A stretch of DNA of 64,000 bases from the NCBI GenBank assembly GCA_028280785.1, contig JANQLF010000122.1:23627-87626 (forward strand), read 5' to 3'. The position numbers were made by a program, and so were the translations under genes. The stretch is from Planctomycetota bacterium (GTDB lineage Bacteria > Planctomycetota > UBA11346). Below, piece by piece: positions 12,044-30,225 of this stretch; the stretch's first letter is position 1, and every line of letters starts with the position of its first letter. The notes under the pieces were generated by a model that worked only from the letters and a program-made list of their open reading frames with translations, was not told the DNA's origin and ran no database searches.

Positions 12044-12120
12044 GCGGGTGTAGCTCAGTTGGCTAGAGCGACAGCTTGCCATGCTGTAGGTCGTGAGTTC
12101 GAGTCTCATCACCCGCTCCA
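12044..12120 (+). tRNA. tRNA-Gly (anticodon GCC) with encoded CCA
   Basis: 77 nt cloverleaf folded by hand: acceptor stem GCGGGTG/CACCCGC, D-arm GCTC/GAGC, anticodon stem ACAGC/GCTGT with loop TTGCCAT, T-arm GTGAG/CTCAT with loop TTCGAGT, discriminator T, CCA. Confidence 0.85.
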
Positions 12121-12122
12121 AA
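12075..12122 (+). repeat. attL: 48 bp direct repeat (anticodon loop to 3' end of tRNA-Gly)
   Basis: Exact 48 bp match to 30178-30225. Confidence 0.85.
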
Positions 12123-12237: not shown

Positions 12238-12789
12238 ATGGTCACACGCGATACACTCAACGAAAACAAACAAAACAGATACTTGGGAAAACAGCATACC
12301 ATATCGGATAATTTTCTGGTCACTCAAGAACACGATGACTACACATGCTGGGCAGCCTGCATTGCTATGGCAACAATTTGGCACAACGACCCGAAGACTA
12401 TAGATTCAATAGTTGAAGAATTGATGCCCGGTGTGGATAAGAAGTCACCCAAAGCCGCTGTAAATAATTTGGATTTCACATTCGCAACACAAGAAATTAA
12501 ATGCCCTAACAACACCACCTTAACATTTACTCCAATATTAAATACAACCCCAAGCATCGAAGAAATAAAAAAGGGAATTATAAATGGGCCCTACCTGCTT
12601 TGGCTGAAGAGTCAGGATCATACCTCAAATATGGGCCACATTGTATTGGGAGTCGGGGTTTGGCATGTACCAGAGACAGACAGTATACTTGCGTGGTCTG
12701 TTTTAGACCCTAACAATAATTACAATATCCTCGTCAAAAAGCCTGGAATTAATGACATCCACCAGATAAGACAAATAGTCAGGATATAA
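12238..12789 (+). CDS. papain-fold cysteine peptidase, C39-like
   Basis: 183 aa; CWAACIAMA resembles the C39 catalytic Cys block (CGAACLAM); downstream GHIVLGVG resembles the C39 His block; stop is 1 nt before TIR gene start. Confidence 0.5.
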   Translation: MVTRDTLNENKQNRYLGKQHTISDNFLVTQEHDDYTCWAACIAMATIWHNDPKTIDSIVEELMPGVDKKSPKAAVNNLDFTFATQEIKCPNNTTLTFTPILNTTPSIEEIKKGIINGPYLLWLKSQDHTSNMGHIVLGVGVWHVPETDSILAWSVLDPNNNYNILVKKPGINDIHQIRQIVRI

Positions 12790-12790
12790 A

Positions 12791-13390
12791 ATGACCGTAT
12801 TCCTAAGCCATAACAGTAAAGATAAACCAACTGTTAGATCAGTTGCCACACAACTACAGCTAATGAAAATAAACGTGTGGCTTGATGAATGGAATCTACA
12901 ACCTGGCGACATGTTAACGATGAGCATATCGGATGCATTGGATAACTGCGATACAATTTTAGTATTCTGGTCAGAGAGCGCCGCCCAAAGTAATTGGGTC
13001 AATGCCGAAATAAATTCTGCCATTACACAATCCATAACGCATGGAAAAAAAGTGATACCTATTATTCTAGACTCAACTCCGCTACCGGCCCTTCTATCTG
13101 GAATAGTTTATATTAACGGAACGAACCTAAATACACTCCCAATGAACTGTATATCTGCAATAACAGGTATTACGAAAAGAAGTGACCAACTAATGGCCAT
13201 GCAGGATGAATTGGCAAATATCGGCGATTTACATTACAATCCACTCATAGGTAATTTTTTTGTCTGCCCCAACTGCGGCGGAAATGCTAGCGACCTTCAC
13301 TCATCTAGCGCACTCGACGAAGAGCACGATAGAATGTATGGCATCGTTAAATGTAGTAATTGCGGTTATCAAGAAGTCAGCGAAATATAA
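12791..13390 (+). CDS. TIR domain protein with C-terminal zinc ribbon
   Basis: 199 aa. TIR hallmarks are FLSHNSKDK (betaA), VWLD, and SNWVNAEINSAI with Trp-x3-Glu spacing like the catalytic Glu of NADase TIRs. C-terminal CPNCGG...CSNCGY zinc ribbon. Confidence 0.7.
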   Translation: MTVFLSHNSKDKPTVRSVATQLQLMKINVWLDEWNLQPGDMLTMSISDALDNCDTILVFWSESAAQSNWVNAEINSAITQSITHGKKVIPIILDSTPLPALLSGIVYINGTNLNTLPMNCISAITGITKRSDQLMAMQDELANIGDLHYNPLIGNFFVCPNCGGNASDLHSSSALDEEHDRMYGIVKCSNCGYQEVSEI

Positions 13391-13488
13391 TATTACAAGA
13401 GAACATATCACACGTGTATTTTCTCTTGCTAACTGTGTAAATTGTTGGCCTGCGCCGTCCACTAAAATGAACGCTTCATGGGACAGCG

Positions 13489-13800
13489 ATGACAATTACT
13501 ACCGACATTACATTTCGTGAAATAAGTGAAGATGAGTGGGAAATTTTCACAGGCGCACAATCATGGAACGATGAAGAACCTTTAATATCAGAAGGTCATC
13601 TAAATGACCATACGCCTTATTTCATGCTGCTAGATCGCAACGGTGGTTGTATTTTATTATATGACTCACAGGACCAACAGGGATGCCTGCAACTAAATCT
13701 AGAGTTTGCACACCAGGCTGAAGCCAGGGCCTTTATTTATGATAATATTCAAAGGCTCACTCTCGAATGTTTTATCAACGCTGGATTCATGGAGGTTTAA
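13489..13800 (+). CDS. hypothetical acidic protein
   Basis: 103 aa ORF between TIR gene and integrase, overlaps annotated integrase ORF start. Confidence 0.3.
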   Translation: MTITTDITFREISEDEWEIFTGAQSWNDEEPLISEGHLNDHTPYFMLLDRNGGCILLYDSQDQQGCLQLNLEFAHQAEARAFIYDNIQRLTLECFINAGFMEV

Positions 13801-14948
13801 TCATGGGGAAAATAAAAAGCCGCCATGTTCGTTACTGCTCTGTAGTAGACATCCACAAGGCCAAGAAAAAGTCTGGGAAAAAGAACTGGAATATAGGTAA
13901 GAGGTGGCTTGGGCGCGTTCAGATTATTGGCACAAAGAAGTATAGGACCAAAGCGTTTGATGAGGAAGTACAGGCTTGGGAATGGGCAGAGGACTTACTC
14001 GCTAAAATTAAAAGCGGCGCGGACCATGGCAAGAAATGCACAATTTCAGCTATCAAAGATGAATACCTTGCACACCTAAAGGGCATGAACTGCTCGCCCG
14101 GTCATATTAGTCAATGTGAAATGGTTTTAGGTCTTGCCATAAAAAATGGAATAAATGACCTACGACACGACCATATTGCATCTAAAGTTGAAACCTTCAT
14201 CCATAACCTCAAAGCACAAACCAGAAGCAAAGACGGAACGATACGGCGCAGAACAAAGTTAACATTATCTGCACGCACTAAAAATTGTTACCTCAATCAT
14301 TTGCTTGCACTGGTTTCTTTTGCTCACAAGCGCCGATATTTACCGATTGATCCACTCCACGGTATTGTGTCAAAGGTTAAGGGGCCATCAAAAATCAAAC
14401 CGACTTTTACGTTTAAAGAAATCCATCTAATACTTTCTGATCCTAATTACTCAGAGCCTATGATGATACCATTTGCATTTACCATTTATTCGGGCTTGAG
14501 AATTAGTGAGGCTATGCATGTCGAGTGGCAGGATATAGATTGGAAGGAGGGACAGATAAAGATTCGAGTGAAATCTGAATACAGACTCAAGGGTCAAAAA
14601 GAGCGCGTTGTGCTGCTACCCTTGGAATTAGCCAATTTACTACGCCCTATTGCCAAACCGCACGGGTGGATTGTTGATGATCATTTACGGACACATAAAT
14701 CCGTATGGCGGCACTACTTCATTAGACTATTGAAGAATAATGACATCGAACTTGATGGCCGCAGCCCCCATAGTGGAAGGCATACCTGGGCCTGCATATG
14801 TTCCGCTAATGGAATGGATTCTTTTGAACTGAAAACATTGGCTGGCCATGCATCACTCCAAACTACTTGGGGGTACTGTCAGAATGTTAATCATTACAGA
14901 TTTGCAATAAAAGAAAAATCTATGAGTCTGTCATCAAATGTTGGATAA
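13767..14948 (+). CDS. int: tyrosine-type site-specific integrase
   Basis: 393 aa in ORF track (probable real start ATG 13803, MGKIKSRH). C-terminal catalytic R...HSGRHTW...LAGHASLQTTWGY, which is the R-H-x-x-R-Y pattern. Confidence 0.8.
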   Translation: MFYQRWIHGGLIMGKIKSRHVRYCSVVDIHKAKKKSGKKNWNIGKRWLGRVQIIGTKKYRTKAFDEEVQAWEWAEDLLAKIKSGADHGKKCTISAIKDEYLAHLKGMNCSPGHISQCEMVLGLAIKNGINDLRHDHIASKVETFIHNLKAQTRSKDGTIRRRTKLTLSARTKNCYLNHLLALVSFAHKRRYLPIDPLHGIVSKVKGPSKIKPTFTFKEIHLILSDPNYSEPMMIPFAFTIYSGLRISEAMHVEWQDIDWKEGQIKIRVKSEYRLKGQKERVVLLPLELANLLRPIAKPHGWIVDDHLRTHKSVWRHYFIRLLKNNDIELDGRSPHSGRHTWACICSANGMDSFELKTLAGHASLQTTWGYCQNVNHYRFAIKEKSMSLSSNVG

Positions 14949-14955
14949 ATAACAC

Positions 14956-17688
14956 TTAATCAAACTCCATCTTATCGCCATCAGGCTTCGAAGAATATCT
15001 CCAGCCACGTTGCGCAAACGCCTCCTTACCACCCTCTAGCTTAAGAAGAGACTCTCTATTCTCTATATTCTCAATAGCAAATTGTTGCACATTCGTAATG
15101 CCGTTCTCCAGAGAATTTAGAGAAATAACGAGGTCAGCGTCGCCATTTATTACAAAATTAGCATTATGCGTTGCAAATATTATCTGCCTCCGCGATTTTT
15201 GTCGTTTTATTAGGTCAGTCAAATACTCTGCAATTAACGCACTGTCCAGATGTGCCTCCGGCTCATCTATAATCAATGGGTGATTGCCAATACTTAACAA
15301 AATAACTAAAACTGCAGTGCATCTTTGACCAAATGAACAAGTTTCGATTGGTTTGTCTCCATACTCTATATTAACAGATCTGATGCTCTTTATTGAGCAG
15401 AGGCGCTTCATGTACATCAATCTTAAAATTTGAATATTATTTGAGTCTCTCAGGTATTCCTTTAATAAATTAACCGTCTTACCTTCGGGTATTCCATCAA
15501 ATAACGCATCAAATACATCATCATCACTTCCCTCAGCCCATATCTTACCATTTAATTGTTCAATACAGCGCCGCACTTTGTCTGCCCTTAAATTACTCTC
15601 TTCGTACTGTTGGTTCATCAAATCAATCAACTCTGATGCAAGACTCGAATGAGCATAGCCAAAAAGCAAACCGGGCTTAATTACTATTGACTTTACATGG
15701 GGAGACGTCGCTTTTAACAGATCGTTCAAGTCGTCAATTATCGGAATAGAATGCTCCATATAACTCGATAACAATTGATCTGGGGGAGGATTATTATCGA
15801 TATACTCTTTATGTTCCGAAATTTCTTCATTGATATTCGCCAGAGACTGCTTCAGCTCAAGAATATCTTCATTGGCCTTGTTCAAATCAAGTGCATTCTG
15901 GGGCTCCACTCCCTTTTCTGCCAAAAACACTTCTAACTTCTCCCTCTCAGTTGCAATGTCTGCCTCGACACTCAAAGACTTTTTCTGCAAATCTGCAAGG
16001 ATTCGTGTAGTAGGTGATGATTTCCTTATTTCACCATATTGAACTATAACCCCGTCCAACCATTCTTTAGCATCTTCATCTTTTGGTTTTTTAATGCTCT
16101 CTAATGAATGAATTGCCTCAGCTAAAATTGATTCGGCGTTTTCTATGATAGCAATGTCTGACTTATATTCGGACAGCGTTCCTGCGAGCTCACTAATTTT
16201 ATCATTAATCTCCTTATGGGCTGGATCATTCAATGAAGATACAATGCGCTCTAAAGAACCGATTCTTTTTTCTACATTGGCTCTTTCTTTAATTAGACTC
16301 GCGTATTTTCGCATTGAACCCACTAAACTGTCGATCGTATCCCCATTAGCCTCGGCCTCATTGATTATTCCCATCAGCTTATTGCTTGAGTCCAACTGTG
16401 TAATTCTATTGTATATTGCACTCGACAACTCTCGCCCATTAATAGCGTAACCTTCGACCTTATCTTGGGGTAAATATTCCGCTGAATCTGGTGGCGTTCC
16501 ATCATTCAGGCTACAAAAGTCAGACGGCGAGAAAACTTGGCCATTATCATCATGCAAAACACAGCCATCCAAAAAACCAGCTGGTTTTCCCATTCCTGCA
16601 TTAATCAACTGCAACAATGTGCTTTTTCCTGATCCTCGACCTCCAACAACACATGTGTAGGACGGAGAAAATGATATTAATCCTACGCCATTAAAGCAAA
16701 AAGGATAAGTCGATTCTATCTGACCGGCCTTGGACTCAACTGATAATTCAGGGTTAGATAGCGTCAATTTATTTATTACATGTATTGGAGTCTGCGGGGC
16801 ATATTGACCAATGTGCACCCTATACTGAGGTTCATACTTAATCTGCTTTAAACCCTCGAATGTTAATTCAGACTTGATCCAACACTTTCGATCCTTATGT
16901 GGACAAAAAACTTTTTCTAAGTTGTGGGCATCAGAGCCCTTAATGCAGGGCAGCAGCTTTCCGTATCTTTGTTTTATATATTCCTCATCTTTATCCTCGC
17001 TTAAACCCAGGAAATATTCTACATCCTTTGGCCTACCGCTGTCGATGAAATCCACAAAACCATATAAAAAGTCTCTTAATGATTGGAAGGAACCCGCGCT
17101 CAAACCTCCAAGACCATCTTTCGAATTATTGGGAATGCCAAGCAATACATTTTTACGAATTTTTGGATTATCATTAAAAAAATCCATAAGCCTAGTGTAC
17201 GAAACCTTAAACTGACTTATGCCCAGCTCATACGCTTCGTTCTCGCTCAACTCAGAAGAAGAGGCCTGTTGTCCTAGCTTAATTAAATCGTTTCGAGTAC
17301 AAAAATATTCTCCGAATTTCATACTCGGGAAAAATACTCGTTCAAAATCCTCTAAAATATCTGGATTCACCAAAATATGAAAATTAACAGGGTTCCCGTC
17401 TTCCGTCTGAATATCCAGTCGAAGCTCAAGATTGGGTAAATGAAATTCGATATCGTTTGCTCGCCCCTGATCATGAAAATTTTTGAATTTCCTGTAATTA
17501 TCAAAAGAGTAGTAGTCAGTTATTGCAATGGCCTTCACTTCTGGATAGGATTCAATTTTATCCAGATAGGCGCCCCATTTATTACCTGCATCAGATCCAG
17601 CAAACTGATCATTCAGTGCAGTATCTGGGCTGTGTATATGCAAATCCCATCTATTCCAAACAGACCCAATGCAATTTTGCTCACTCAT
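14956..17688 (-). CDS. PHP phosphoesterase fused to SMC/Rad50-like ABC ATPase with coiled-coil (Ppl-like single-gene defence candidate)
   Basis: 910 aa. N-terminal WDLHIHS PHP motif. Walker A GGRGSGKSTLLQL. Approx 300 aa coiled-coil insert. C-terminal signature-like SFGQR, Walker B IIDEPEAHLD and H-loop FATHN. Confidence 0.7.
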   Translation of the reverse strand: MSEQNCIGSVWNRWDLHIHSPDTALNDQFAGSDAGNKWGAYLDKIESYPEVKAIAITDYYSFDNYRKFKNFHDQGRANDIEFHLPNLELRLDIQTEDGNPVNFHILVNPDILEDFERVFFPSMKFGEYFCTRNDLIKLGQQASSSELSENEAYELGISQFKVSYTRLMDFFNDNPKIRKNVLLGIPNNSKDGLGGLSAGSFQSLRDFLYGFVDFIDSGRPKDVEYFLGLSEDKDEEYIKQRYGKLLPCIKGSDAHNLEKVFCPHKDRKCWIKSELTFEGLKQIKYEPQYRVHIGQYAPQTPIHVINKLTLSNPELSVESKAGQIESTYPFCFNGVGLISFSPSYTCVVGGRGSGKSTLLQLINAGMGKPAGFLDGCVLHDDNGQVFSPSDFCSLNDGTPPDSAEYLPQDKVEGYAINGRELSSAIYNRITQLDSSNKLMGIINEAEANGDTIDSLVGSMRKYASLIKERANVEKRIGSLERIVSSLNDPAHKEINDKISELAGTLSEYKSDIAIIENAESILAEAIHSLESIKKPKDEDAKEWLDGVIVQYGEIRKSSPTTRILADLQKKSLSVEADIATEREKLEVFLAEKGVEPQNALDLNKANEDILELKQSLANINEEISEHKEYIDNNPPPDQLLSSYMEHSIPIIDDLNDLLKATSPHVKSIVIKPGLLFGYAHSSLASELIDLMNQQYEESNLRADKVRRCIEQLNGKIWAEGSDDDVFDALFDGIPEGKTVNLLKEYLRDSNNIQILRLMYMKRLCSIKSIRSVNIEYGDKPIETCSFGQRCTAVLVILLSIGNHPLIIDEPEAHLDSALIAEYLTDLIKRQKSRRQIIFATHNANFVINGDADLVISLNSLENGITNVQQFAIENIENRESLLKLEGGKEAFAQRGWRYSSKPDGDKMEFD

Positions 17689-17847
17689 GCCTAACTCGGT
17701 ACACTCCCTGCCTAATAAGCAGGGAGTCTAACACATGCAAATTAAACTTAAAGCCCGTAAGGAACGGCACTTGAAGCTCAACACCTTATGAGAACAAGCT
17801 CCAATTAACACGAGGGTTAACACAAGGACACTGTTTGTGGCCCTTAA

Positions 17848-18213
17848 CTATCTTCGAGCAATTAGTGCTATGATGGCAGCAATGCCTACCACGACCAAGC
17901 CCTTCTTGATCAAATCAGAGGTCTTCGCATCAGATCGAATCTCTACATCGTTTTTTAGGAGATTGGTCCTGGCAGTTTCCGCATCCTTGAACACCTGAGA
18001 AGGCATAACCCCTAGTCCATAACATAGTTTATCTAACAGATCTACGGATACGCTTACATCGCCCTTCTCAGCCCTAGATATCGTTGACTGAGGAATGCCC
18101 GTTTTTTCAGAGAGATCTTTTTGCTCAATACCCTTGGTGGTCCTGTAATGCCTCAATATTGCGCCGACCACTGCTGGGAAGGTGGTGACATTCACCATTT
18201 TTTCATTTGACAT
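17848..18213 (-). CDS. XRE-family HTH transcriptional regulator with C-terminal TM anchor
   Basis: 121 aa; HTH_3 (LSEKTGIPQSTISRAEKGD); C-terminal VVVGIAAIIALIA hydrophobic helix; sits upstream of the PHP-ATPase gene on the same strand. Confidence 0.6.
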   Translation of the reverse strand: MSNEKMVNVTTFPAVVGAILRHYRTTKGIEQKDLSEKTGIPQSTISRAEKGDVSVSVDLLDKLCYGLGVMPSQVFKDAETARTNLLKNDVEIRSDAKTSDLIKKGLVVVGIAAIIALIARR

Positions 18214-18692
18214 ATATGCTTCTCCTGCATATTAGGTTTTCAGCCATACACGCTCAAGGAGCAATTATGCTAGATAATGGCAATTCACCAAGTCCAATAG
18301 ATGACCCGAGGGGCATTCCTGCAGGTACACCAATTTACCTCAATGTGGGGTTTTATAGACATATCGGCATCGTCTCGGATAGGAAAATGCACGGCAAGCC
18401 CATGGTCCTTGAGAAGTCCTTGAAGCGTGGTCGAGCCATGGAAGTCACATGGGATACATTCAGTAATGGTCAACCCATTTATCGATATGACATTCAGTCC
18501 AATACAAATGCCCAAAACGCAATAAGAAACGCGAGATCAAAGCTTGGTGAAACCTGGACACCTTGGAATAACTGCGAGCACTTTGTAAGAGAGTCACTTT
18601 GCGTTGACTCAAGCAGTCCCCAACTACAAACAACTGCGATCTTCACAGGTTTATCCGCGATTCTCTTACTGATATCAATAAAAAGTCGATAA
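18207..18692 (+). CDS. LRAT/PLAAT-like NlpC/P60-fold protein with C-terminal TM anchor
   Basis: 161 aa (real start may be 18267 MLDNG). YRHIGIVSD His block and NCEHFV Cys block characteristic of LRAT/H-rev107 family. C-terminal TAIFTGLSAILLLISI helix. Confidence 0.55.
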   Translation: MTYMLLLHIRFSAIHAQGAIMLDNGNSPSPIDDPRGIPAGTPIYLNVGFYRHIGIVSDRKMHGKPMVLEKSLKRGRAMEVTWDTFSNGQPIYRYDIQSNTNAQNAIRNARSKLGETWTPWNNCEHFVRESLCVDSSSPQLQTTAIFTGLSAILLLISIKSR

Positions 18693-19005: not shown

Positions 19006-19785
19006 TCATCCCTTGTCGCTAATAATGTGCGGGAGCACATGATAGACCCGCTGCCTTGGCATATCAGGCAGCGACATTTTACGTTGATATTTTCCATCTG
19101 AACTCTTTTTAATATACCCATTTTTTGCCAAGACCTTTGCCACAAATCGAGCATCCATGCCCTTGCAAACATGCTGACGCCATGCGTTGGGTAAAAAATA
19201 ATAATGGTTAAGTTGACGTGGTTCATCCTCACCATCAATTAATGTCTGTACTTTATCAATAAATCCAGTTCTGTTGCGAACAGGAAATCCATCTATTGTC
19301 ACCCTGCCATTAAAACGATTAATAACATTCATTTGAGACGGTGCATTATACTCAATATAAGAACGTATTAATTCGATAGCCTGCTGCTCCTCTCGACTAG
19401 TTGTTGAGCCGCGATTTTCAATCCAGGCATTGGCCACCTTAATCACATTTGTTCTTGCAACACCAGATTTCCATCCAGTGATACCCCATTCACTTGCCTT
19501 TTCACCTGCAAATGCAACTTGTGCAAAGCGTTCTAACACGCGAACAATTTGTCCGTCAGAATCCTTTGGCAAAACTTCTTTAAGGAAAATGGCCTTAAAC
19601 TCTTGCCATTCTTCTGGCAGTTCGTCCTGCCAATGCACTGCCTGTGCTATAAACTGTCTACCCGCATAACCAGTGTTTTCCTTGGCCAGCTTTCGAATTT
19701 CATCTGAGAATTGTGCTCCACTTTTAGCCATTATGTAAATCCTCCCACACACCGAGCCCACATCCAGCATCTGCAGGGATATCAA
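19006..19785 (-). CDS. DUF927-family C-terminal segment (possible split gene, probable start approx 19734)
   Basis: 259 aa ORF directly following and overlapping the DUF927 ORF; no independent RBS evident. Confidence 0.4.
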   Translation of the reverse strand: MISLQMLDVGSVCGRIYIMAKSGAQFSDEIRKLAKENTGYAGRQFIAQAVHWQDELPEEWQEFKAIFLKEVLPKDSDGQIVRVLERFAQVAFAGEKASEWGITGWKSGVARTNVIKVANAWIENRGSTTSREEQQAIELIRSYIEYNAPSQMNVINRFNGRVTIDGFPVRNRTGFIDKVQTLIDGEDEPRQLNHYYFLPNAWRQHVCKGMDARFVAKVLAKNGYIKKSSDGKYQRKMSLPDMPRQRVYHVLPHIISDKG

Positions 19786-21076
19786 TAAATCTGGCCTCTT
19801 GACCTGCCTTAACTTGTTTACCTGCTTCTGATAATAGATCAGCTAATGCAATTTCAGAGGATGATAAAACCATAAAATTCCATGTAAAAACTGGTCTGCT
19901 CGTAATAGTTGCTGTCATACGGCGCTTTCCTCTCTCATTGGCAAACATGTACACGGTTTCACCAACTGTACGCGGGACCGCCTGTCCCAACTCATCCAAG
20001 ACAACTAGTCTGTGATTGCTAGAAGCGGCTAACATCTCAAAAGCATTGTCAGTAGAACGCCATGACTGGACCTGTGTTCCATTCACACTTACAGCTAACT
20101 GCAGCAAGACTGTTTTACCTATAGATGAATTACCGCGCAAATTAAAGCACACGGTTGGTAGCTCCAAGAGCGAAGAAAGTGATGCTGCAAAACCAAGGCA
20201 CAAAGCAAAAACAGCGCGGCTATTTCCAATAGATTTTACCGCTAGTTCATTACGCCAGGCTGAATAACTGCCCTTATATTCAACTACATCTGCCATATAG
20301 TCAGATTGAAGAAAAACACGTTCATTCTCATCTTCAGATTTATAAACAACCGTTCCAAGACTATCGCCCATAACATAATGGCCATTATGCCAGCCAGGCT
20401 GACTTACGCTGGTAAAACGTACCTCACTTACGGAATGAAAAACATAGCTAGTCAGCAAATGTATATGCAGTTTTGTGATCGAGTATCTCAATCCACGGTC
20501 TGCTAAGGCTTCCAATAATTGATGCGACTCCTTGGGTATCAGCGATGCTTTTACAGGCAAGTGATGTGTACGACCATCGCCGTCACGCCACCATAGCAAA
20601 ACACCCCAATTAGTGCCGTCCTTTGCACGAGTCTGACCAAGAACTACAAGCGGCGTCGATATCCAGGTACGAATAGTATCTTCTGGTTTTTTATCATTTG
20701 GCTTTAAATACCAGACTCCATGTTGATCAATTTCAAAAAAACCAATTTGTGGTATGTCACGAATCATTGGCAAGACAGGATCAAATTGGATTAATTGGTC
20801 TATGATTTCGGGTTCTGACAATTCGCTATTTTCTTGTTCAATGCAATGATCCTCTGCTAGATCATCATAATCAGGATCAGCAGTAGGGTCATTGTCGTCA
20901 TATGTAATGAGCGTATCGGTCTGCTCTTTACCTTCAGGTACCAGTGTTGTTTCAGTGCGATGTTCAGTCTTTTGGGGCTCCTCATTATCAAACCCAAGCT
21001 CTTCTGCTAGATCATTTATGATATCACTGTGAGACTTACTTTCTGGGTCATCATAGTCATCATCGAAATCTGACAT
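19724..21076 (-). CDS. DUF927/primase-associated P-loop NTPase (P4-alpha / VirE-like replication protein), N-terminal part
   Basis: 450 aa; highly acidic N-terminus; WGVLLWWRDGDG and PGWH blocks as in DUF927; Walker A-like GNSSIGKT. Confidence 0.55.
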   Translation of the reverse strand: MSDFDDDYDDPESKSHSDIINDLAEELGFDNEEPQKTEHRTETTLVPEGKEQTDTLITYDDNDPTADPDYDDLAEDHCIEQENSELSEPEIIDQLIQFDPVLPMIRDIPQIGFFEIDQHGVWYLKPNDKKPEDTIRTWISTPLVVLGQTRAKDGTNWGVLLWWRDGDGRTHHLPVKASLIPKESHQLLEALADRGLRYSITKLHIHLLTSYVFHSVSEVRFTSVSQPGWHNGHYVMGDSLGTVVYKSEDENERVFLQSDYMADVVEYKGSYSAWRNELAVKSIGNSRAVFALCLGFAASLSSLLELPTVCFNLRGNSSIGKTVLLQLAVSVNGTQVQSWRSTDNAFEMLAASSNHRLVVLDELGQAVPRTVGETVYMFANERGKRRMTATITSRPVFTWNFMVLSSSEIALADLLSEAGKQVKAGQEARFIDIPADAGCGLGVWEDLHNG

Positions 21077-23867: not shown

Positions 23868-25037
23868 ATGCCTGACCCAAGAAAAAAAGACCCAACTCTG
23901 CCTCGTGGCGTGACCATAGAAGACCAATGGGAAAAACGACGACGACTTGGAAAGCCGGTTAACCCCGGCGTGCGGCGATACCTAGCAAAAGCCCTAATCG
24001 GTGGGACTAAATATAAATCCAAAGTGTTTGATAAACGCCGCGACGCTATCGACTGGGCTACCGCTACCGTCGCTCGTATACAAGCAGGACTCGACACAGG
24101 CAGATGCTGCCTTGTGGTAACATACTTGGATGAATATCTTTCGGAATTAAAAAGTCGCCGCCTGTCAGAAGGTTATATTAGACAAGCTGAAGACACACTC
24201 CAATTACTGCATAACAATGGCGCGAAGGACTTAAACAATCCATCATTCATACACACTGCAAAATTGATATTATATAATAAAAAAGCCCTGAAGACCAACA
24301 GAGATGGGTCTGTACGCCGCCAAACACAGTTAAAATTATCACCGTCTACAATTAACAGATACATTGCCCAGGCCAAGACATTCTCAACTTGGTGTAGTGA
24401 CAATGGATATGCAAATCGAGATGTATTAGCGCCGTTAAAGAAGCTACGTGAAGTAAAGAAAAACAAGCCCGTCCTGACTGTGTCAGAGCTCAAGCGTCTA
24501 CTAAATGACGAAAATAGTCACCATTCATTTTGGTTGATGACATGCCTGATGTGCTACCTCGGCTTACGTTGCGGTGAAGCGGCGGGCCTTCGAACTGCCG
24601 ACATTCTCTTCGAAGAAGAAATTGTTCGAGTCTGCATGCCGGATGGCCATGGGATGAAATTAAAATGGCAAAAAGAACGTCTAGTGCCTCTACAACCAGA
24701 ATTAGCTGAGATACTTCGTAAGCAAATGGATCCAAAGGCCAAATACGTGGTAAAGTCTGATAGACCACGAAAGGACAAGACCAAGTGGCGGACTGACTTC
24801 GACCAACTTCTAAGACTGGCAGGAATCACTAAGCGACCAGGGCTCAGCCCTCACAGTTGCAGACATACTTACATATCGCTTATGGTTGCCCATACAGGTG
24901 ACATGCGAAAGGTCCAAAAGAGCGTTGGCCATCAAAGCATCGTCACTACAGAAAAGTACGCTGAAAGTGCAGATGCCTACTACATATTTGTAAAAGACTG
25001 GCCCAAGGACCAGTATCTACACTTGCGCAACTTGTAG
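23868..25037 (+). CDS. int: tyrosine-type site-specific integrase (second)
   Basis: 389 aa; HSCRHTYISLM ... GHQSIVTTEKYAE, which is the H-x-x-R ... Y catalytic pattern. Confidence 0.8.
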   Translation: MPDPRKKDPTLPRGVTIEDQWEKRRRLGKPVNPGVRRYLAKALIGGTKYKSKVFDKRRDAIDWATATVARIQAGLDTGRCCLVVTYLDEYLSELKSRRLSEGYIRQAEDTLQLLHNNGAKDLNNPSFIHTAKLILYNKKALKTNRDGSVRRQTQLKLSPSTINRYIAQAKTFSTWCSDNGYANRDVLAPLKKLREVKKNKPVLTVSELKRLLNDENSHHSFWLMTCLMCYLGLRCGEAAGLRTADILFEEEIVRVCMPDGHGMKLKWQKERLVPLQPELAEILRKQMDPKAKYVVKSDRPRKDKTKWRTDFDQLLRLAGITKRPGLSPHSCRHTYISLMVAHTGDMRKVQKSVGHQSIVTTEKYAESADAYYIFVKDWPKDQYLHLRNL

Positions 25038-25049
25038 CACTGACTTGCT

Positions 25050-28000
25050 ATGACGTTAGTACAAGTGAGCACAGTAGGTTATAGCGAAGACTGGGAGGAA
25101 GGATTATCTGCACCTGTACTCCTAATCCATCTAGCTATTGCTAAGGCCTCATTGGACTTACGTCATTCAAGAGACAGAATCCCTCATGTAACATTAAGCT
25201 GCCGCCTAAGGATGTACTACATGAGCGCTCTTTCCGACCTTCTTGACGATTATCGAAACAAATCACAAACCGAGCGCGAAAAAGGCACCTATTTTGAAGA
25301 GCTGATTAGGACCTATTTCAGGTTTGAAGCGACCTATAAGGATCTATACAGCGATGTGTGGCTATACTCAGACTGGGCCAAAGAGCAGGGACTAGATCAA
25401 AGGGATACTGGAATTGACCTAGTTGCCAAAACACATGCAACAAATGAATTCCATGCCATTCAATGCAAATGCTTCGCTGAAGATTACAAAGTTCAAAAAA
25501 AGGATATTGATAGTTTTTTCACGGCTTCCGGAAAGAAGCCATTTTCACACCGGATCATAGTTACCACAACTAATCTCTGGAGTGAACACGCAGATGATTC
25601 CCTTCGGGATCAACAATTATCAGTTAATAAAATTGACCTCCACGATCTTGAGAATAGTCAAATCGACTGGGCCAAATATAAATCCGACAACAAACCTATA
25701 CTAAAGAAAAAGAAAACTCTTCGGCGACACCAAGAAACTGCGCTCTCAAACGTTGTATCTGGGCTCAATAAAGCAGACCGTGGTAAGCTGATTATGGCCT
25801 GTGGGACAGGTAAAACTTTTACCAGCTTAAAAATAGCTGAACAAATGGCCGGAAAAGGGAAAAGAGTATTGTTTCTGGTCCCGAGCTTGTCTCTACTTAG
25901 TCAAACCTTAACTGAATGGACTCAGCAATCTGAAACGCCAATGCATAATTTTGCAGTTTGTTCGGATAGTGCTGTAGGAAAAAAACGAAAGAAAGATGAT
26001 GATATAGTTCAAACTTTCATGCACGAACTTAGGTATCCAGCAACCACTGATCCCAAGCGCTTGGCTGGTGAAATGAAGAAAAGACACGATGATCAGCATA
26101 TGAGCGTTGTGTATTCAACCTATCACTCAATTGAAGTGATTAATCAAGCACAAAAAAATCATGCACTAGATGATTTTGATCTGATTATATGTGATGAGGC
26201 CCATCGAACTACAGGAGCTACATTCGAAGACGAAAGTGAAAGCAACTTCGTGAAGATTCACGATTCGGGTTTCATTAAATCCAAGAAACGTTTGTATATG
26301 ACAGCAACACCAAGAATTTATGGTGATAGTGCAAAGGCTACTGCCGAAAAAGACAATGTTGCAATATGCTCTATGGATGACGAGAAATTATACGGTAAAG
26401 AACTTCACGTAATAACATTCTCAGAATCTGTTAAACTAGGGCTGCTCACAGACTATAAAGTGATCGTCCTTTCGATTGATGAAGAACATGTTAGCTCAAG
26501 AATACAAAATTTATTAAAAGATGATAATAACCAGTTAAAGGTAGATGATGCTGCCAAAATTATTGGCTGCTGGAAAGCACTCAGCAAACAAGGGATGGAG
26601 GAGGATTTGATCCTTGATCCCAAACCAATGAAAAGGTCTGTTGCATTTTGTCAAGTTATTGACCCAAAATCTGGAAGAAGCCACAAGGTCAGCTCTAAAC
26701 AGATTTCATCAATGTTCCAAGAAGTGGTTGAAGCGTACCAAGAACAGGAAGAAGAACACAATACACTGATATGTGAGGCAAGGCATATCGACGGGAGCAT
26801 GAATGCCAGTGAAAAGACTGAAAAGATTGATTGGTTAAAATCAGAGCCAGCCGAAGACACTAGTCATATCCTCAGTAATGTCCGCTGCCTCTCCGAAGGC
26901 GTTGATATTCCAGCACTAGATGCAGTTCTTTTTCTCACACCCAGGAATTCTCAGATTGATGTTGTCCAATCAGTTGGCCGTGTAATGCGGAATGCCGATG
27001 GCAAAAACAAAGGGTATGTAATTTTACCTGTCGTAATACCAATGGGCATGACTCCCTCTGAAGCTTTGAATGACAATAAAGTATACAAGGTTGTTTGGGA
27101 GGTCTTACAAGCTCTAAGATCTCACGATGACCGCTTTGATGCAATGATAAACAAGTTGGATCTAATCGGCAAAGATACAAGCAAAATGGAAGTCATTGCA
27201 ATAACAGACAAAGTTCAACGAAAGGCAAAAAAGAAGAAAAAACAAGCTGGCAAAGGTAGCAGCACCATTGGCAGCCCAGATCTAAACAACATTCCCACAC
27301 AAATGGACATACAATTCGAAGTTGGTGAAGTGGAACGAGCGTTATATGCAAAAGTGGTTAAAAAATGCGGAAACAGAAACCACTGGGAAGATTGGGCAAA
27401 AGATATTGCTAAAATAGCAAAAACTCATATTGCTAGAATTACAACCATAATAAGGGATAAAAGCAATAAAATAGAAAGAAAGTCCTTCTTTGCGTTCGCA
27501 GAAGAACTTCGAGATGATTTAAACGATAGTATAACTGATGATGAAGTAATAGAAATGCTTTCACAGCATTTGATTACTAAACCCGTATTTGATGCGTTGT
27601 TCAAGGACTATAGTTTTGCTAATAACAACCCCGTATCTCAGGCAATGCAACAAGTATTGGATACTCTCCAAGAACATCGATTGGACAAAGAGACGGATAC
27701 CTTAGATCGTTTTTATTCAAGCGTTCAATTACGTGCAGAGGGCATTGATAGCGCCGAAGGGAAACAAAGGATAATACTTGAACTGTACGATAAATTCTTC
27801 CGTAATGCATTTCCTCGGATGACCGAACGATTAGGCATCGTCTACACACCTGTTGAGGTAGTAGACTTCATAATACACAGTGTTAATGACCTACTTAAAT
27901 CACAGTTCAAACAGACATTAAATAACCAGGGAGTGCACATTATAGATCCCTTTACCGGAACTGGAACATTTGTCACTCGATTGCTTCAAAGTGGTTTAAT

Positions 28001-30080
28001 AAAACAAGAGAACCTTAAAGAAAAATACATGAAAGAAATTCATGCAAATGAAATTGTTTTACTAGCCTATTACATAGCCGCCATAAATATTGAATCGGTT
28101 TATTATAGCATCGTTGGCGGCGAGCATAAGACCTTCAATAACATATGCCTAACAGATACTTTTCAGCTGCATGAAAAAGATGATACCATAAGCGGTTTAT
28201 TGGAAGACAATAGCGACAGAAGGATTAAGCAAAAAAAATTAGACATAAGGGTGATTATGGGCAACCCACCCTATTCAGCAATACAATCGAGCGAGAATGA
28301 TAACAACAAAAAAACTGGTTACCCAAATCTTGACGGGAGAATTCGAGATACATTCGCGCTTGGCTCAAGCGGTGTACTCAAAAATGCCTTGTATGACTCA
28401 TATGTAAGAGCAATGAGATGGGCGATAGATCGTATCGGCAATAAAGGTATTATAGGATTTGTAACTGGCAGCGCCTGGATTGACAGGACATTTGCCGATG
28501 TGATGAGAAAATGCTTGGCTGAAGAATGTACAAGCATTTACATAGTGGACCTAAGGGGCGATATTAGAAAAAATATGCTAAGTAAGGGAGCAGCAAAGCA
28601 GGGAGGCAATATATTTGGGTCAAGCAGCATGACTGGGATCGCCGTTACATTTTTTGTTAAAAACCCTTCTTCATCTAAAAAGAGCAAGATCTACTATTTA
28701 GATATTGGTGAAGATCTTAGCAGTGAGGACAAATTAAATGAGTTATTGCGCCTTAAGAGCTGCAATAATATTTCGGAATTAGGTCTTTGGTCTGAGTTGA
28801 TCCCGGATAAGTATAACGATTGGATTAATCAACGTGACGACAAGTTTGAGTCATACCCGGTCATTGGGAGCAAGAAAAAAGACTCCGGGGTGACTATTTT
28901 CAATGTATATTCGGGCGGCGTAAAAACCAATCGCGATGCATGGTGCTATAATTTCTCTCGAGAATCTGTCGCACATAATATGTCTAATATGGCCGATTTT
29001 TACAACAGTGAGATGATGAGGTACAAAAAACATTGTGAGCGCACCCCCAAGGATCGGAGGACTCCGGTTGATGAATTTATAGATAACAACCCTAAAAACA
29101 TTAGCTGGACAAGAGAATTAAAGAGAGATCTTTTGAATGGAAAAGATCGCCCCTATAATGAATCCGCTATTAGAATGGCACATTATAGACCATTTATAAA
29201 ATGCTGGATGTATTTTGATAGATACTATAACAACTGTATTTACCAGATGCCTAAATTATTCCCGAATCCAGATTCTGCCAATAAGATAATTTGTGTCTCC
29301 GGTATTGGGTCCAGGAGCGGATTTTCTGCTTTAATGGTTGATGCCGTTCCTTGCTTGGACATGATCGAAAAAGGGCAGTGTTTCCCAATTATTCAATATA
29401 AAGAAAGTGAAGAATCTACACAAACAACTTTCATAAACCAAGAAAATTCTACTGAAATTCCTGCTATCACCAGCGAGGGACTTGAGTATTTTCGTAGGAA
29501 TTTGACGGAAATTGAAGTGGATGAAAGTGATGTCTTTTACTATGTCTATGGATTACTTCACAGTAGAGACTATGTGAAAAAATTTGGGAAAAACCTCATA
29601 AAGGAACTGCCTAGAATTCCATGCCCCAAAGAATCTGATGACTTTAAAACATATTCAGTTAACGGAAAGAAACTTTCTGAATTACATCTAAACTATGAAT
29701 CAGTAGAGTGTTATCCTGCTAAAATTGAGACATCTGTTGATAGACTTAGACCCGATCATTACCTAGTCGATAAGATGAAGTTTAAAACCAAAAAAGACAA
29801 GACCATTATTGTGTACAATGAGTTTATCACAATAAATGGGATTCCTGAAAAAGCGTACGATTATCTGGTCAGCGGCAAACCCGCCATAACCTGGGTGATG
29901 GAGAGACAGTCTAAATCAGTTGACAAAAAAAGTGGAATCGTAAATGATGCGAATAATTGGGCTACTGACACAATTGGTAACCATAAGTATCCCCTAGAGT
30001 TACTTCTGCGTGTCGTCACTGTCAGCTTGCAAACACTGAACATTATTGACGATCTACCAAGCATCGAATTTATTGATTGA
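25050..30080 (+). CDS. Type ISP restriction-modification enzyme (Mrr-like nuclease + SF2 helicase + N6-adenine MTase + TRD in one polypeptide)
   Basis: 1676 aa (start may be 25212). N-terminal PD-(D/E)xK Mrr-like block (GIDLVAK...IQCK). Helicase Walker A ACGTGKTFT and DEAH box LIICDEAHRT. Gamma-class MTase GNPPYS (NPPY). Long C-terminal target-recognition region. Architecture as in LlaGI/LlaBIII. Confidence 0.8.
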   Translation: MTLVQVSTVGYSEDWEEGLSAPVLLIHLAIAKASLDLRHSRDRIPHVTLSCRLRMYYMSALSDLLDDYRNKSQTEREKGTYFEELIRTYFRFEATYKDLYSDVWLYSDWAKEQGLDQRDTGIDLVAKTHATNEFHAIQCKCFAEDYKVQKKDIDSFFTASGKKPFSHRIIVTTTNLWSEHADDSLRDQQLSVNKIDLHDLENSQIDWAKYKSDNKPILKKKKTLRRHQETALSNVVSGLNKADRGKLIMACGTGKTFTSLKIAEQMAGKGKRVLFLVPSLSLLSQTLTEWTQQSETPMHNFAVCSDSAVGKKRKKDDDIVQTFMHELRYPATTDPKRLAGEMKKRHDDQHMSVVYSTYHSIEVINQAQKNHALDDFDLIICDEAHRTTGATFEDESESNFVKIHDSGFIKSKKRLYMTATPRIYGDSAKATAEKDNVAICSMDDEKLYGKELHVITFSESVKLGLLTDYKVIVLSIDEEHVSSRIQNLLKDDNNQLKVDDAAKIIGCWKALSKQGMEEDLILDPKPMKRSVAFCQVIDPKSGRSHKVSSKQISSMFQEVVEAYQEQEEEHNTLICEARHIDGSMNASEKTEKIDWLKSEPAEDTSHILSNVRCLSEGVDIPALDAVLFLTPRNSQIDVVQSVGRVMRNADGKNKGYVILPVVIPMGMTPSEALNDNKVYKVVWEVLQALRSHDDRFDAMINKLDLIGKDTSKMEVIAITDKVQRKAKKKKKQAGKGSSTIGSPDLNNIPTQMDIQFEVGEVERALYAKVVKKCGNRNHWEDWAKDIAKIAKTHIARITTIIRDKSNKIERKSFFAFAEELRDDLNDSITDDEVIEMLSQHLITKPVFDALFKDYSFANNNPVSQAMQQVLDTLQEHRLDKETDTLDRFYSSVQLRAEGIDSAEGKQRIILELYDKFFRNAFPRMTERLGIVYTPVEVVDFIIHSVNDLLKSQFKQTLNNQGVHIIDPFTGTGTFVTRLLQSGLIKQENLKEKYMKEIHANEIVLLAYYIAAINIESVYYSIVGGEHKTFNNICLTDTFQLHEKDDTISGLLEDNSDRRIKQKKLDIRVIMGNPPYSAIQSSENDNNKKTGYPNLDGRIRDTFALGSSGVLKNALYDSYVRAMRWAIDRIGNKGIIGFVTGSAWIDRTFADVMRKCLAEECTSIYIVDLRGDIRKNMLSKGAAKQGGNIFGSSSMTGIAVTFFVKNPSSSKKSKIYYLDIGEDLSSEDKLNELLRLKSCNNISELGLWSELIPDKYNDWINQRDDKFESYPVIGSKKKDSGVTIFNVYSGGVKTNRDAWCYNFSRESVAHNMSNMADFYNSEMMRYKKHCERTPKDRRTPVDEFIDNNPKNISWTRELKRDLLNGKDRPYNESAIRMAHYRPFIKCWMYFDRYYNNCIYQMPKLFPNPDSANKIICVSGIGSRSGFSALMVDAVPCLDMIEKGQCFPIIQYKESEESTQTTFINQENSTEIPAITSEGLEYFRRNLTEIEVDESDVFYYVYGLLHSRDYVKKFGKNLIKELPRIPCPKESDDFKTYSVNGKKLSELHLNYESVECYPAKIETSVDRLRPDHYLVDKMKFKTKKDKTIIVYNEFITINGIPEKAYDYLVSGKPAITWVMERQSKSVDKKSGIVNDANNWATDTIGNHKYPLELLLRVVTVSLQTLNIIDDLPSIEFID

Positions 30081-30177: not shown

Positions 30178-30225
30178 CTTGCCATGCTGTAGGTCGTGAG
30201 TTCGAGTCTCATCACCCGCTCCAAA
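30178..30225 (+). repeat. attR: 48 bp copy of tRNA-Gly 3' part
   Basis: Exact copy of 12075-12122. Confidence 0.85.

Follow-up and report, generated by a model that had tools for sequence, protein, structure and literature searches.

The gene at positions 14956-17688 (minus strand) of a 64,000-nucleotide stretch of Planctomycetota bacterium contig JANQLF010000122.1 (assembly GCA_028280785.1; the whole stretch is hereafter called the window) encodes a 910-residue protein in which a PHP phosphoesterase is joined to an SMC-like ABC ATPase. Judged by its sequence, it is a real, intact and divergent member of the TrlF family. The gene itself is new, and the family to which it belongs is already known and named. 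By analogy with the anti-phage protein Ppl, its most likely function is that of an autonomous nucleotide-regulated defence nuclease. We consider it reasonably probable that the combined interpretation is correct, namely that the protein is a TrlF-family member and a remote homologue of Ppl, that it is carried as autonomous cargo of a genomic island and acts as a nucleotide-regulated nuclease in defence, and that the helix-turn-helix (HTH) gene located upstream is a separate entity.

Family placement and domain architecture

The 910-residue protein scores 439.5 bits with the NCBIfam TrlF model NF045780 (curated cutoff, 350), and the match runs end to end, residues 8-898 corresponding to positions 2-943 of the 944 in the model. 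It reaches 146.6 of the 1000 bits that the NCBIfam equivalog model for Ppl (NF042955) demands, and 135 of the 475 bits set for a third sister model, Spaf_1101. Since the TrlF cutoff is passed and that of Ppl is failed, the protein is placed as a sister of Ppl, on the TrlF side. In a raw hidden Markov model scan, the PADLOC model of Ppl (PDLC02208) matches with E=3.8e-37 over about 25-28% coverage, and the mad3 model of the methylation-associated MADS system matches with E=3.7e-17.

The relationship to Ppl was assessed at two levels. When the protein was cut into four pieces and scanned with the Ppl models, just three colinear blocks were matched, at residues ~236-310, 338-377 and 779-894, which contain the last PHP motif and the linker, the Walker A motif, and the C-terminal ABC lobe, respectively. 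BLASTP against the reference WP_059331541.1, the product of an E. coli plasmid gene annotated "anti-phage protein Ppl", recovers these blocks again, with identities of 31-34%, and in addition a marginal match at the N-terminus. At the profile level, hhalign of the TrlF family against this reference yields a probability of 99.9% over 766 columns with 22% identity, spanning residues 5-896 on the TrlF side and 2-892 of the reference. This near-full-length alignment indicates that TrlF and Ppl are full-length homologues sharing one architecture. A preliminary description of the locus, made from the DNA letters alone, had matched the gene to the single-gene Ppl system of Gao et al. 2020; the similarity is indeed significant and, at the profile level, covers the full length, but orthology to Ppl is ruled out by the equivalog score and by the limitation of the BLASTP coverage to short blocks. 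Annotating such TrlF genes as Ppl is an over-claim. Like Ppl, the window protein combines an N-terminal PHP domain, a split ABC ATPase and a central helical insertion in one chain, and both are encoded by stand-alone genes on mobile elements; unlike Ppl, it stays far from the curated cutoff, and the likeness of the two is confined to three blocks in pairwise comparison and to 22% identity between profiles.

The protein is remote from its own relatives as well. It forms a singleton cluster, its nearest relative among 5.8 billion proteins is 34% identical, and the TrlF protein common on Klebsiella plasmids is 28% identical over residues 8-878. The founder of the family, TrlF of Photorhabdus laumondii (WP_011144772.1), shares its domain order, length, and PHP and ABC motifs. 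The two loci differ in that a TrlG partner is present in Photorhabdus and none is found beside the window gene, and in that the HTH protein encoded upstream in the window is tail-anchored and probably belongs to a family other than that of TrlR.

The protein begins with MSEQNCIGSVWNRWDLHIHS. Its PHP domain and the conserved linker that follows (residues 8-300; 16789-17667, minus strand) are supported by the family alignment and Foldseek. Motif I reads W14-D15-L16-H17-x-H19, the other PHP positions are D58, E88, H103 and SDAH at 252-255, and the metal-ligand motifs are thereby represented by H17, H19, D58, E88, H103, D253 and H255; the linker carries the motif TFEGLKQ at 276-282. Motif inspection places the N-terminal lobe of the ABC head at residues 330-436 (16381-16701, minus strand), with the Walker A motif GGRGSGKST at 349-357 and the Q-loop at Q408. 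A coiled-coil insertion of ~225 residues (437-661; 15706-16380, minus strand), recognized as long helices in the AlphaFold2 model, separates this lobe from a helical insert and the C-terminal lobe (662-898; 14995-15705, minus strand), which were identified by motifs and block matches. The C-terminal lobe contains the signature-like SFGQR (785-789), the Walker B/D-loop segment IIDEPEAHLD (806-815) and the H-loop H841.

In a family alignment of 24 sequences, in which the relatives are 27-33% identical to the window protein, W14, D15, H19, E88, D253 and H255 are invariant in the PHP part, as are G349, R351, G352, G354, K355, Q408, S785, G787, D808, E811 and D815 in the ABC part. H17, D58 and H841 are conserved in at least 90%, and H103 is variable, being replaced by another residue in some members. 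Because most of the motif positions are invariant across such distant relatives, the motifs are functional and not chance matches. A generic Walker A motif occurs in all 71 of the TrlF relatives surveyed, and Pfam PF02811 appears in the precomputed annotation of relatives.

The AlphaFold2 model is confident (pLDDT 86, pTM 0.74). It comprises an alpha/beta N-terminal domain and a nucleotide-binding lobe, which is separated from the second ABC lobe by the long helices of residues 437-661 and a helical insert. The best Foldseek matches are the heads, with coiled coils, of SMC, MukB, JetC, Rad50, RecN and AriA (E from 1e-9 to 1e-4), and those of the N-terminal domain are RNase AM of V. cholerae (9etk, E=1e-4) and the PHP domain of Pol III alpha (3e0d). 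A sequence search detected no TrlF or Ppl structure in the PDB. The architecture proposed in the preliminary description, an SbcC/Rad50-like head with a built-in PHP domain in which an N-terminal PHP motif is followed by Walker A, a coiled-coil insertion, and signature-like, Walker B and H-loop motifs, is thus borne out in every element by the motifs, their conservation and the predicted structure.

As in SbcCD/Mre11-Rad50, Wadjet JetC and PARIS AriA, the ABC head is split by an antiparallel coiled coil and an ATPase is coupled to a nuclease. In those systems, however, the nuclease is a separate subunit (Mre11/SbcD, Toprim or JetD), as opposed to the fused PHP domain of the window protein. The coiled coil is also short and lacks the CxxC zinc hook, and the gene has no conserved partner. 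Inspection of the Cys positions showed none at residues 393-707; the coiled coil is therefore Cys-free and a Rad50-type zinc hook is absent.

Genomic context of TrlF relatives and of the upstream HTH gene

TrlF genes are widespread, being found on plasmids and in phyla that range from Helicobacter to bacteria of the candidate phyla radiation (CPR) and archaea. A scan of species-representative genomes yielded 80 TrlF loci in many phyla, including CPR bacteria and archaea, and 71 of these contain a full-length open reading frame (ORF). No neighbouring gene is conserved among the 71 full-length relatives, and ten individual contexts from metagenomes and genomes likewise reveal no pattern of a conserved partner. 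An XRE-type HTH gene was found in 1 of 62 upstream neighbours, and AlbA_2, which is typical of TrlG, in 1 of 60 downstream neighbours. A conserved HTH or TrlG partner for TrlF was thus surveyed in the 71 loci and ruled out. In raw counts, the recurring neighbour families are HsdS, HsdR, N6 and N4 methylases, AlwI, GmrSD, CD-NTase, recombinases and a transposase. In addition, a full-length relative is present on 167 plasmid records, mostly conjugative and many from Klebsiella/Enterobacteriaceae, and in only one phage record. In H. pylori, the relatives occupy a fixed chromosomal site adjoining housekeeping genes. At the window locus, the operon feature of TrlR-TrlG is absent, the downstream gene being a convergent integrase. 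By sequence and gene order, the distribution and the neighbours fit a stand-alone defence gene.

Two individual contexts were also recorded. On the Klebsiella pneumoniae IncFII plasmid pKP29105-2 (L093), a Gabija-like ATPase/UvrD pair is followed by TrlF, an Abi-family gene and then ccdAB, and dozens of clinical Klebsiella/Enterobacteriaceae plasmids carry an identical copy of this TrlF gene. A gut-metagenome relative represented on >100 contigs (L005-L007) is located between MmeI-like and N6_Mtase/Eco57I-type methyltransferase genes. It may be that certain TrlF genes cooperate with modules for DNA modification.

The gene upstream of TrlF in the window (17848-18213, minus strand) encodes a 121-residue XRE-type protein (Pfam HTH_3, E=2e-10), located 159 nt from the TrlF gene and in the same orientation. 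Its C-terminal segment GLVVVGIAAIIALIA (residues 105-119), flanked by KK and RR, has a mean Kyte-Doolittle hydropathy of 2.97 over 15 residues. The preliminary description had regarded this protein as an unusual, potentially membrane-tethered regulator of the TrlF gene. The HTH_3 domain, the shared orientation and the hydrophobic anchor were confirmed, with the correction that the transmembrane (TM) anchor is formed by the C-terminal tail, as opposed to a segment at the N-terminus or in the interior of the protein. The HTH-TM architecture, in turn, proved not to be unusual but that of a conserved family. A word-index homologue search with the protein returned only the query itself; exhaustive HMMER searching, on the other hand, revealed ~70 proteins of 116-144 residues that align end to end among the top 150. 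Both the HTH and the C-terminal hydrophobic helix are conserved in an alignment of 40 sequences, and the hydropathy of the tail is 1.6-2.9 in 19 metagenome members (123-149 residues).

About 20 good loci of this HTH-TM family were collected from metagenomes, and a TrlF relative is present in none of them. The reverse survey, covering 1.05 Mb of TrlF-family loci, turned up no HTH protein whose alignment extends through the tail and just one LRAT-like gene. The latter (L010, 11796-12206, Fictibacillus sp.) lies ~4 kb downstream of TrlF and is probably coincidental, being found in 1 of about 92 loci. A role of the HTH protein as regulator of the TrlF gene is therefore left without comparative support: it is probably not a dedicated TrlF regulator, and the two genes seem to be neighbours here by chance. 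Since six of the HTH-TM loci carry a PLAAT-like partner and none carries TrlF, and the converse survey agrees, we regard the HTH gene as part of a separate two-gene cassette.

The partner gene in the window (18267-18692, plus strand) is divergent to the HTH gene and encodes a PLAAT/LRAT-like protein of 141 residues with a C-terminal hydrophobic tail. A word-index search with this ORF retrieved only the query. Among the HTH-TM loci, however, a divergently oriented homologue stands intact beside the HTH-TM gene in five (L097, L099, L102, L103 and L106; phmmer E from 1e-11 to 9e-15), and a split copy occurs in a sixth metagenome locus (L101). Six PLAAT-like members share an invariant His32 and an invariant NCEHFV motif at 102-107 (with Cys103), beyond which their C-terminal segments are hydrophobic. 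Among PDB chains, the profile of the six retrieves PLAAT3/PLA2G16, HRASLS2, PLAAT4 and an LRAT chimera, with E-values of 1.6e-7 to 9e-6, and Pfam LRAT (PF04970) matches all six (best E=1.6e-12); the window copy alone reaches 16.5 bits with this family, under the 24.3 cutoff. The hhalign comparison with a PLAAT3 sequence gave 97.9%, for which the PDB profile match serves as an independent check. A single-sequence structure model of the protein was unusable (pLDDT 40). Like human PLAAT3/PLA2G16 and LRAT, of the H-box/NC family, the protein combines a presumed catalytic His, the Cys motif NCEHF and a C-terminal membrane anchor; it differs in its bacterial origin, in a sequence that is ~22% identical and in having a tail-anchored XRE regulator as its partner.

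The genes surrounding the cassette differ between loci and include housekeeping genes as well as those for Type I HsdR and the RnlA toxin. Among the PADLOC models, none recognizes the PLAAT-like gene, the HTH gene receives generic HTH matches only, and a description of the HTH-TM/PLAAT-like cassette was not found in the literature searched. In another sub-clade of the HTH-TM family (L107-L109), the divergent neighbour is a different protein of 123-127 residues with several hydrophobic segments.

We tentatively suggest, as a possibility that we hold with considerable doubt, that the pair is an undescribed conflict or abortive-infection cassette made up of a tail-anchored XRE repressor and a likewise tail-anchored PLAAT/LRAT-like phospholipase/acyltransferase, in which the tethered repressor would sense perturbation of the envelope and free an effector that attacks membrane lipids, and that TrlF would separately represent a distinct defence family with triggers unlike those of Ppl. 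This side result may outweigh the TrlF finding in importance. If true, the conserved XRE/PLAAT-like pairing would extend a eukaryotic family of lipid-modifying enzymes into the biology of bacterial mobile elements.

The 159 nt that separate the HTH gene from the TrlF gene (17689-17847, minus strand) are predicted to form a structured RNA (fold z-score -3.2 versus shuffled controls). A hairpin with 15-nt arms at 17700-17730 directly precedes the TrlF start codon and may mask a ribosome-binding site, GGGAG. At 17805-17827, an 11-nt direct repeat occurs in tandem (TTAACACGAGG/TTAACACAAGG). A consensus scan of the spacer detected no promoter-like or terminator-like site.

Proposed function and alternative explanations

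Ppl is the nearest characterized homologue of the TrlF family. T7 is restricted by Ppl, which Bas63 gp130 in turn counteracts (PMC11482910). According to a review (PMC12904381), Ppl is a 3'-5' exonuclease of single-stranded DNA; nucleoside triphosphates (NTPs) inhibit it at both of its domains, and a loss of nucleotides and the presence of 3'-OH ends activate it. The primary Ppl paper is given, in the citation carried by PMC13434339, as Xu et al., Mol Cell 2026. Reasoning from homology, we expect the ABC head of the window protein to bind nucleotide and, together with the coiled coil, to engage nucleic acid, and the PHP domain to be the nuclease effector. As reported for Ppl, bound NTPs may keep this nuclease inactive until an infection, by using up nucleotides and laying bare abnormal DNA ends, sets it free. 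The placement of TrlF as a full-length sister of Ppl thus offers a concrete, testable mechanism for the whole TrlF family.

Several observations weigh against this interpretation. The identity of the protein to any relative is only 22-34%, and its substrate and trigger may therefore differ from those of Ppl; the closest PHP structure is that of RNase AM, an exoribonuclease, which makes RNA a possible substrate. The founding TrlF is encoded in the Photorhabdus trlR-trlF-trlG operon, for which the sole experimental paper on a TrlF gene mapped the temperature-restriction phenotype to trlG, found no trlF mutations and saw no role of trlF in that phenotype (PMC7554251), and neither a defence test nor any other functional test of a TrlF-family protein was found in the literature. 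Finally, the HTH gene points in the same direction as TrlF and lies 159 nt before it, and neither a canonical promoter nor a terminator was detected between the two, so that read-through transcription from the HTH gene into TrlF is possible.

The last point bears on the explanation put forward originally, whereby the gene encodes a true Ppl defence protein and the membrane-tethered XRE protein encoded upstream governs its expression. The significant similarity to the Ppl model, the common architecture, the undetected terminator, and the direct repeat and hairpin in the spacer, which could be regulatory, are all compatible with it. We nevertheless judge it unlikely: the score of 147 against a Ppl cutoff of 1000, with the TrlF model passed and BLASTP limited to three short blocks, speaks against the first half, and the second is contradicted by the single upstream HTH gene in 62 TrlF relatives and by the pairing of HTH-TM genes with a PLAAT-like gene in six loci, as opposed to TrlF in 0 of about 20. 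Still more improbable, in our estimate, is that the gene is the remnant of a multi-gene TrlR-TrlF-TrlG system, incomplete or non-functional alone and in need of a TrlG-like AlbA_2/HATPase partner. Such an origin is suggested by the three-gene operon of the founder, in which a small regulator lies upstream as in the window (PMC7554251). The intact ORF with every catalytic motif retained argues otherwise, as do the near absence of AlbA_2 downstream of the relatives (1 of 60), most of which stand alone, and the fact that no island ORF scanned against Pfam contains AlbA_2 or HATPase_c_4.

A third explanation dispenses with immunity and assigns to the protein an SbcCD-like processing of DNA ends or hairpins, or of RNA, by which it would help to maintain or replicate either the mobile element or its host. 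Rad50, RecN and the exoribonuclease RNase AM are indeed among its structural neighbours, the island carries a replication-type DUF927 gene, and the H. pylori relatives reside among housekeeping genes. The patchy spread over phyla, the many conjugative plasmids, the repeated adjacency of restriction and other defence genes, and the defence function of Ppl itself are more readily reconciled with a role in immunity, and we view the non-immune alternative as having a modest chance at best, although a somewhat better one than the other two.

The island at tRNA-Gly

The TrlF gene resides on an 18.1-kb element, which is a mobile defence island. Its limits are given by exact 48-nt repeats at 12075-12122 and 30178-30225, by which the island is bounded, and the location on an integrated island, as recognized originally, is thereby substantiated. 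The repeat corresponds to the 3' 46 nt of tRNA-Gly(GCC) plus 2 nt: the left attachment site, attL, is contained in the tRNA-Gly(GCC) segment (tRNA 12044-12120; with attL, 12044-12122, plus strand), and attR (30178-30225, plus strand), an exact copy of the tRNA 3' end, forms the far limit. A third copy of the repeat was not found, nor anything internal that would split the island, and the tRNA was the sole match in an Rfam scan of the island.

The tyrosine recombinase int1 (13767-14948, plus strand; Pfam Phage_integrase, E=3e-20) is convergent with the TrlF gene, from which it is separated by a 7-bp gap. A three-gene module (12238-13800) is situated between tRNA-Gly and the integrase. It encodes a 183-residue ORF with a sub-threshold match to Peptidase_C39_2 (E=0.014), a TIR_2 protein of 199 residues with a C-terminal CxxC zinc ribbon (12791-13390, plus strand; Pfam TIR_2, E=8e-27, with PADLOC TIR-type matches) and a 103-residue ORF without matches, and may constitute a TIR-based defence module.

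At the attR end (23868-30080), a second tyrosine recombinase is located directly upstream of a Type ISP restriction-modification enzyme. As no internal att copy was found, two recombinases reside inside a single att pair. The Type ISP enzyme, a further defence component of the island, comprises 1676 residues (25050-30080, plus strand), contains the Pfam families Type_ISP_C, ISP_coupler, Mrr_cat_2 and N6_Mtase, and scores 2266 bits with the PADLOC model REase_MTase_IIG. Apart from the TrlF gene, the HTH gene with its divergent neighbour and small ORFs, which make up the remaining content, the island also carries the DUF927 gene. As a probe, the DUF927 protein revealed no related islands and no close relatives in metagenome or viral contigs. 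Its ORF of 450 residues overlaps a 259-residue ORF without a Pfam match (19006-21076, minus strand; 241 residues in the public gene call), and the two may represent a split or two-part replication protein.

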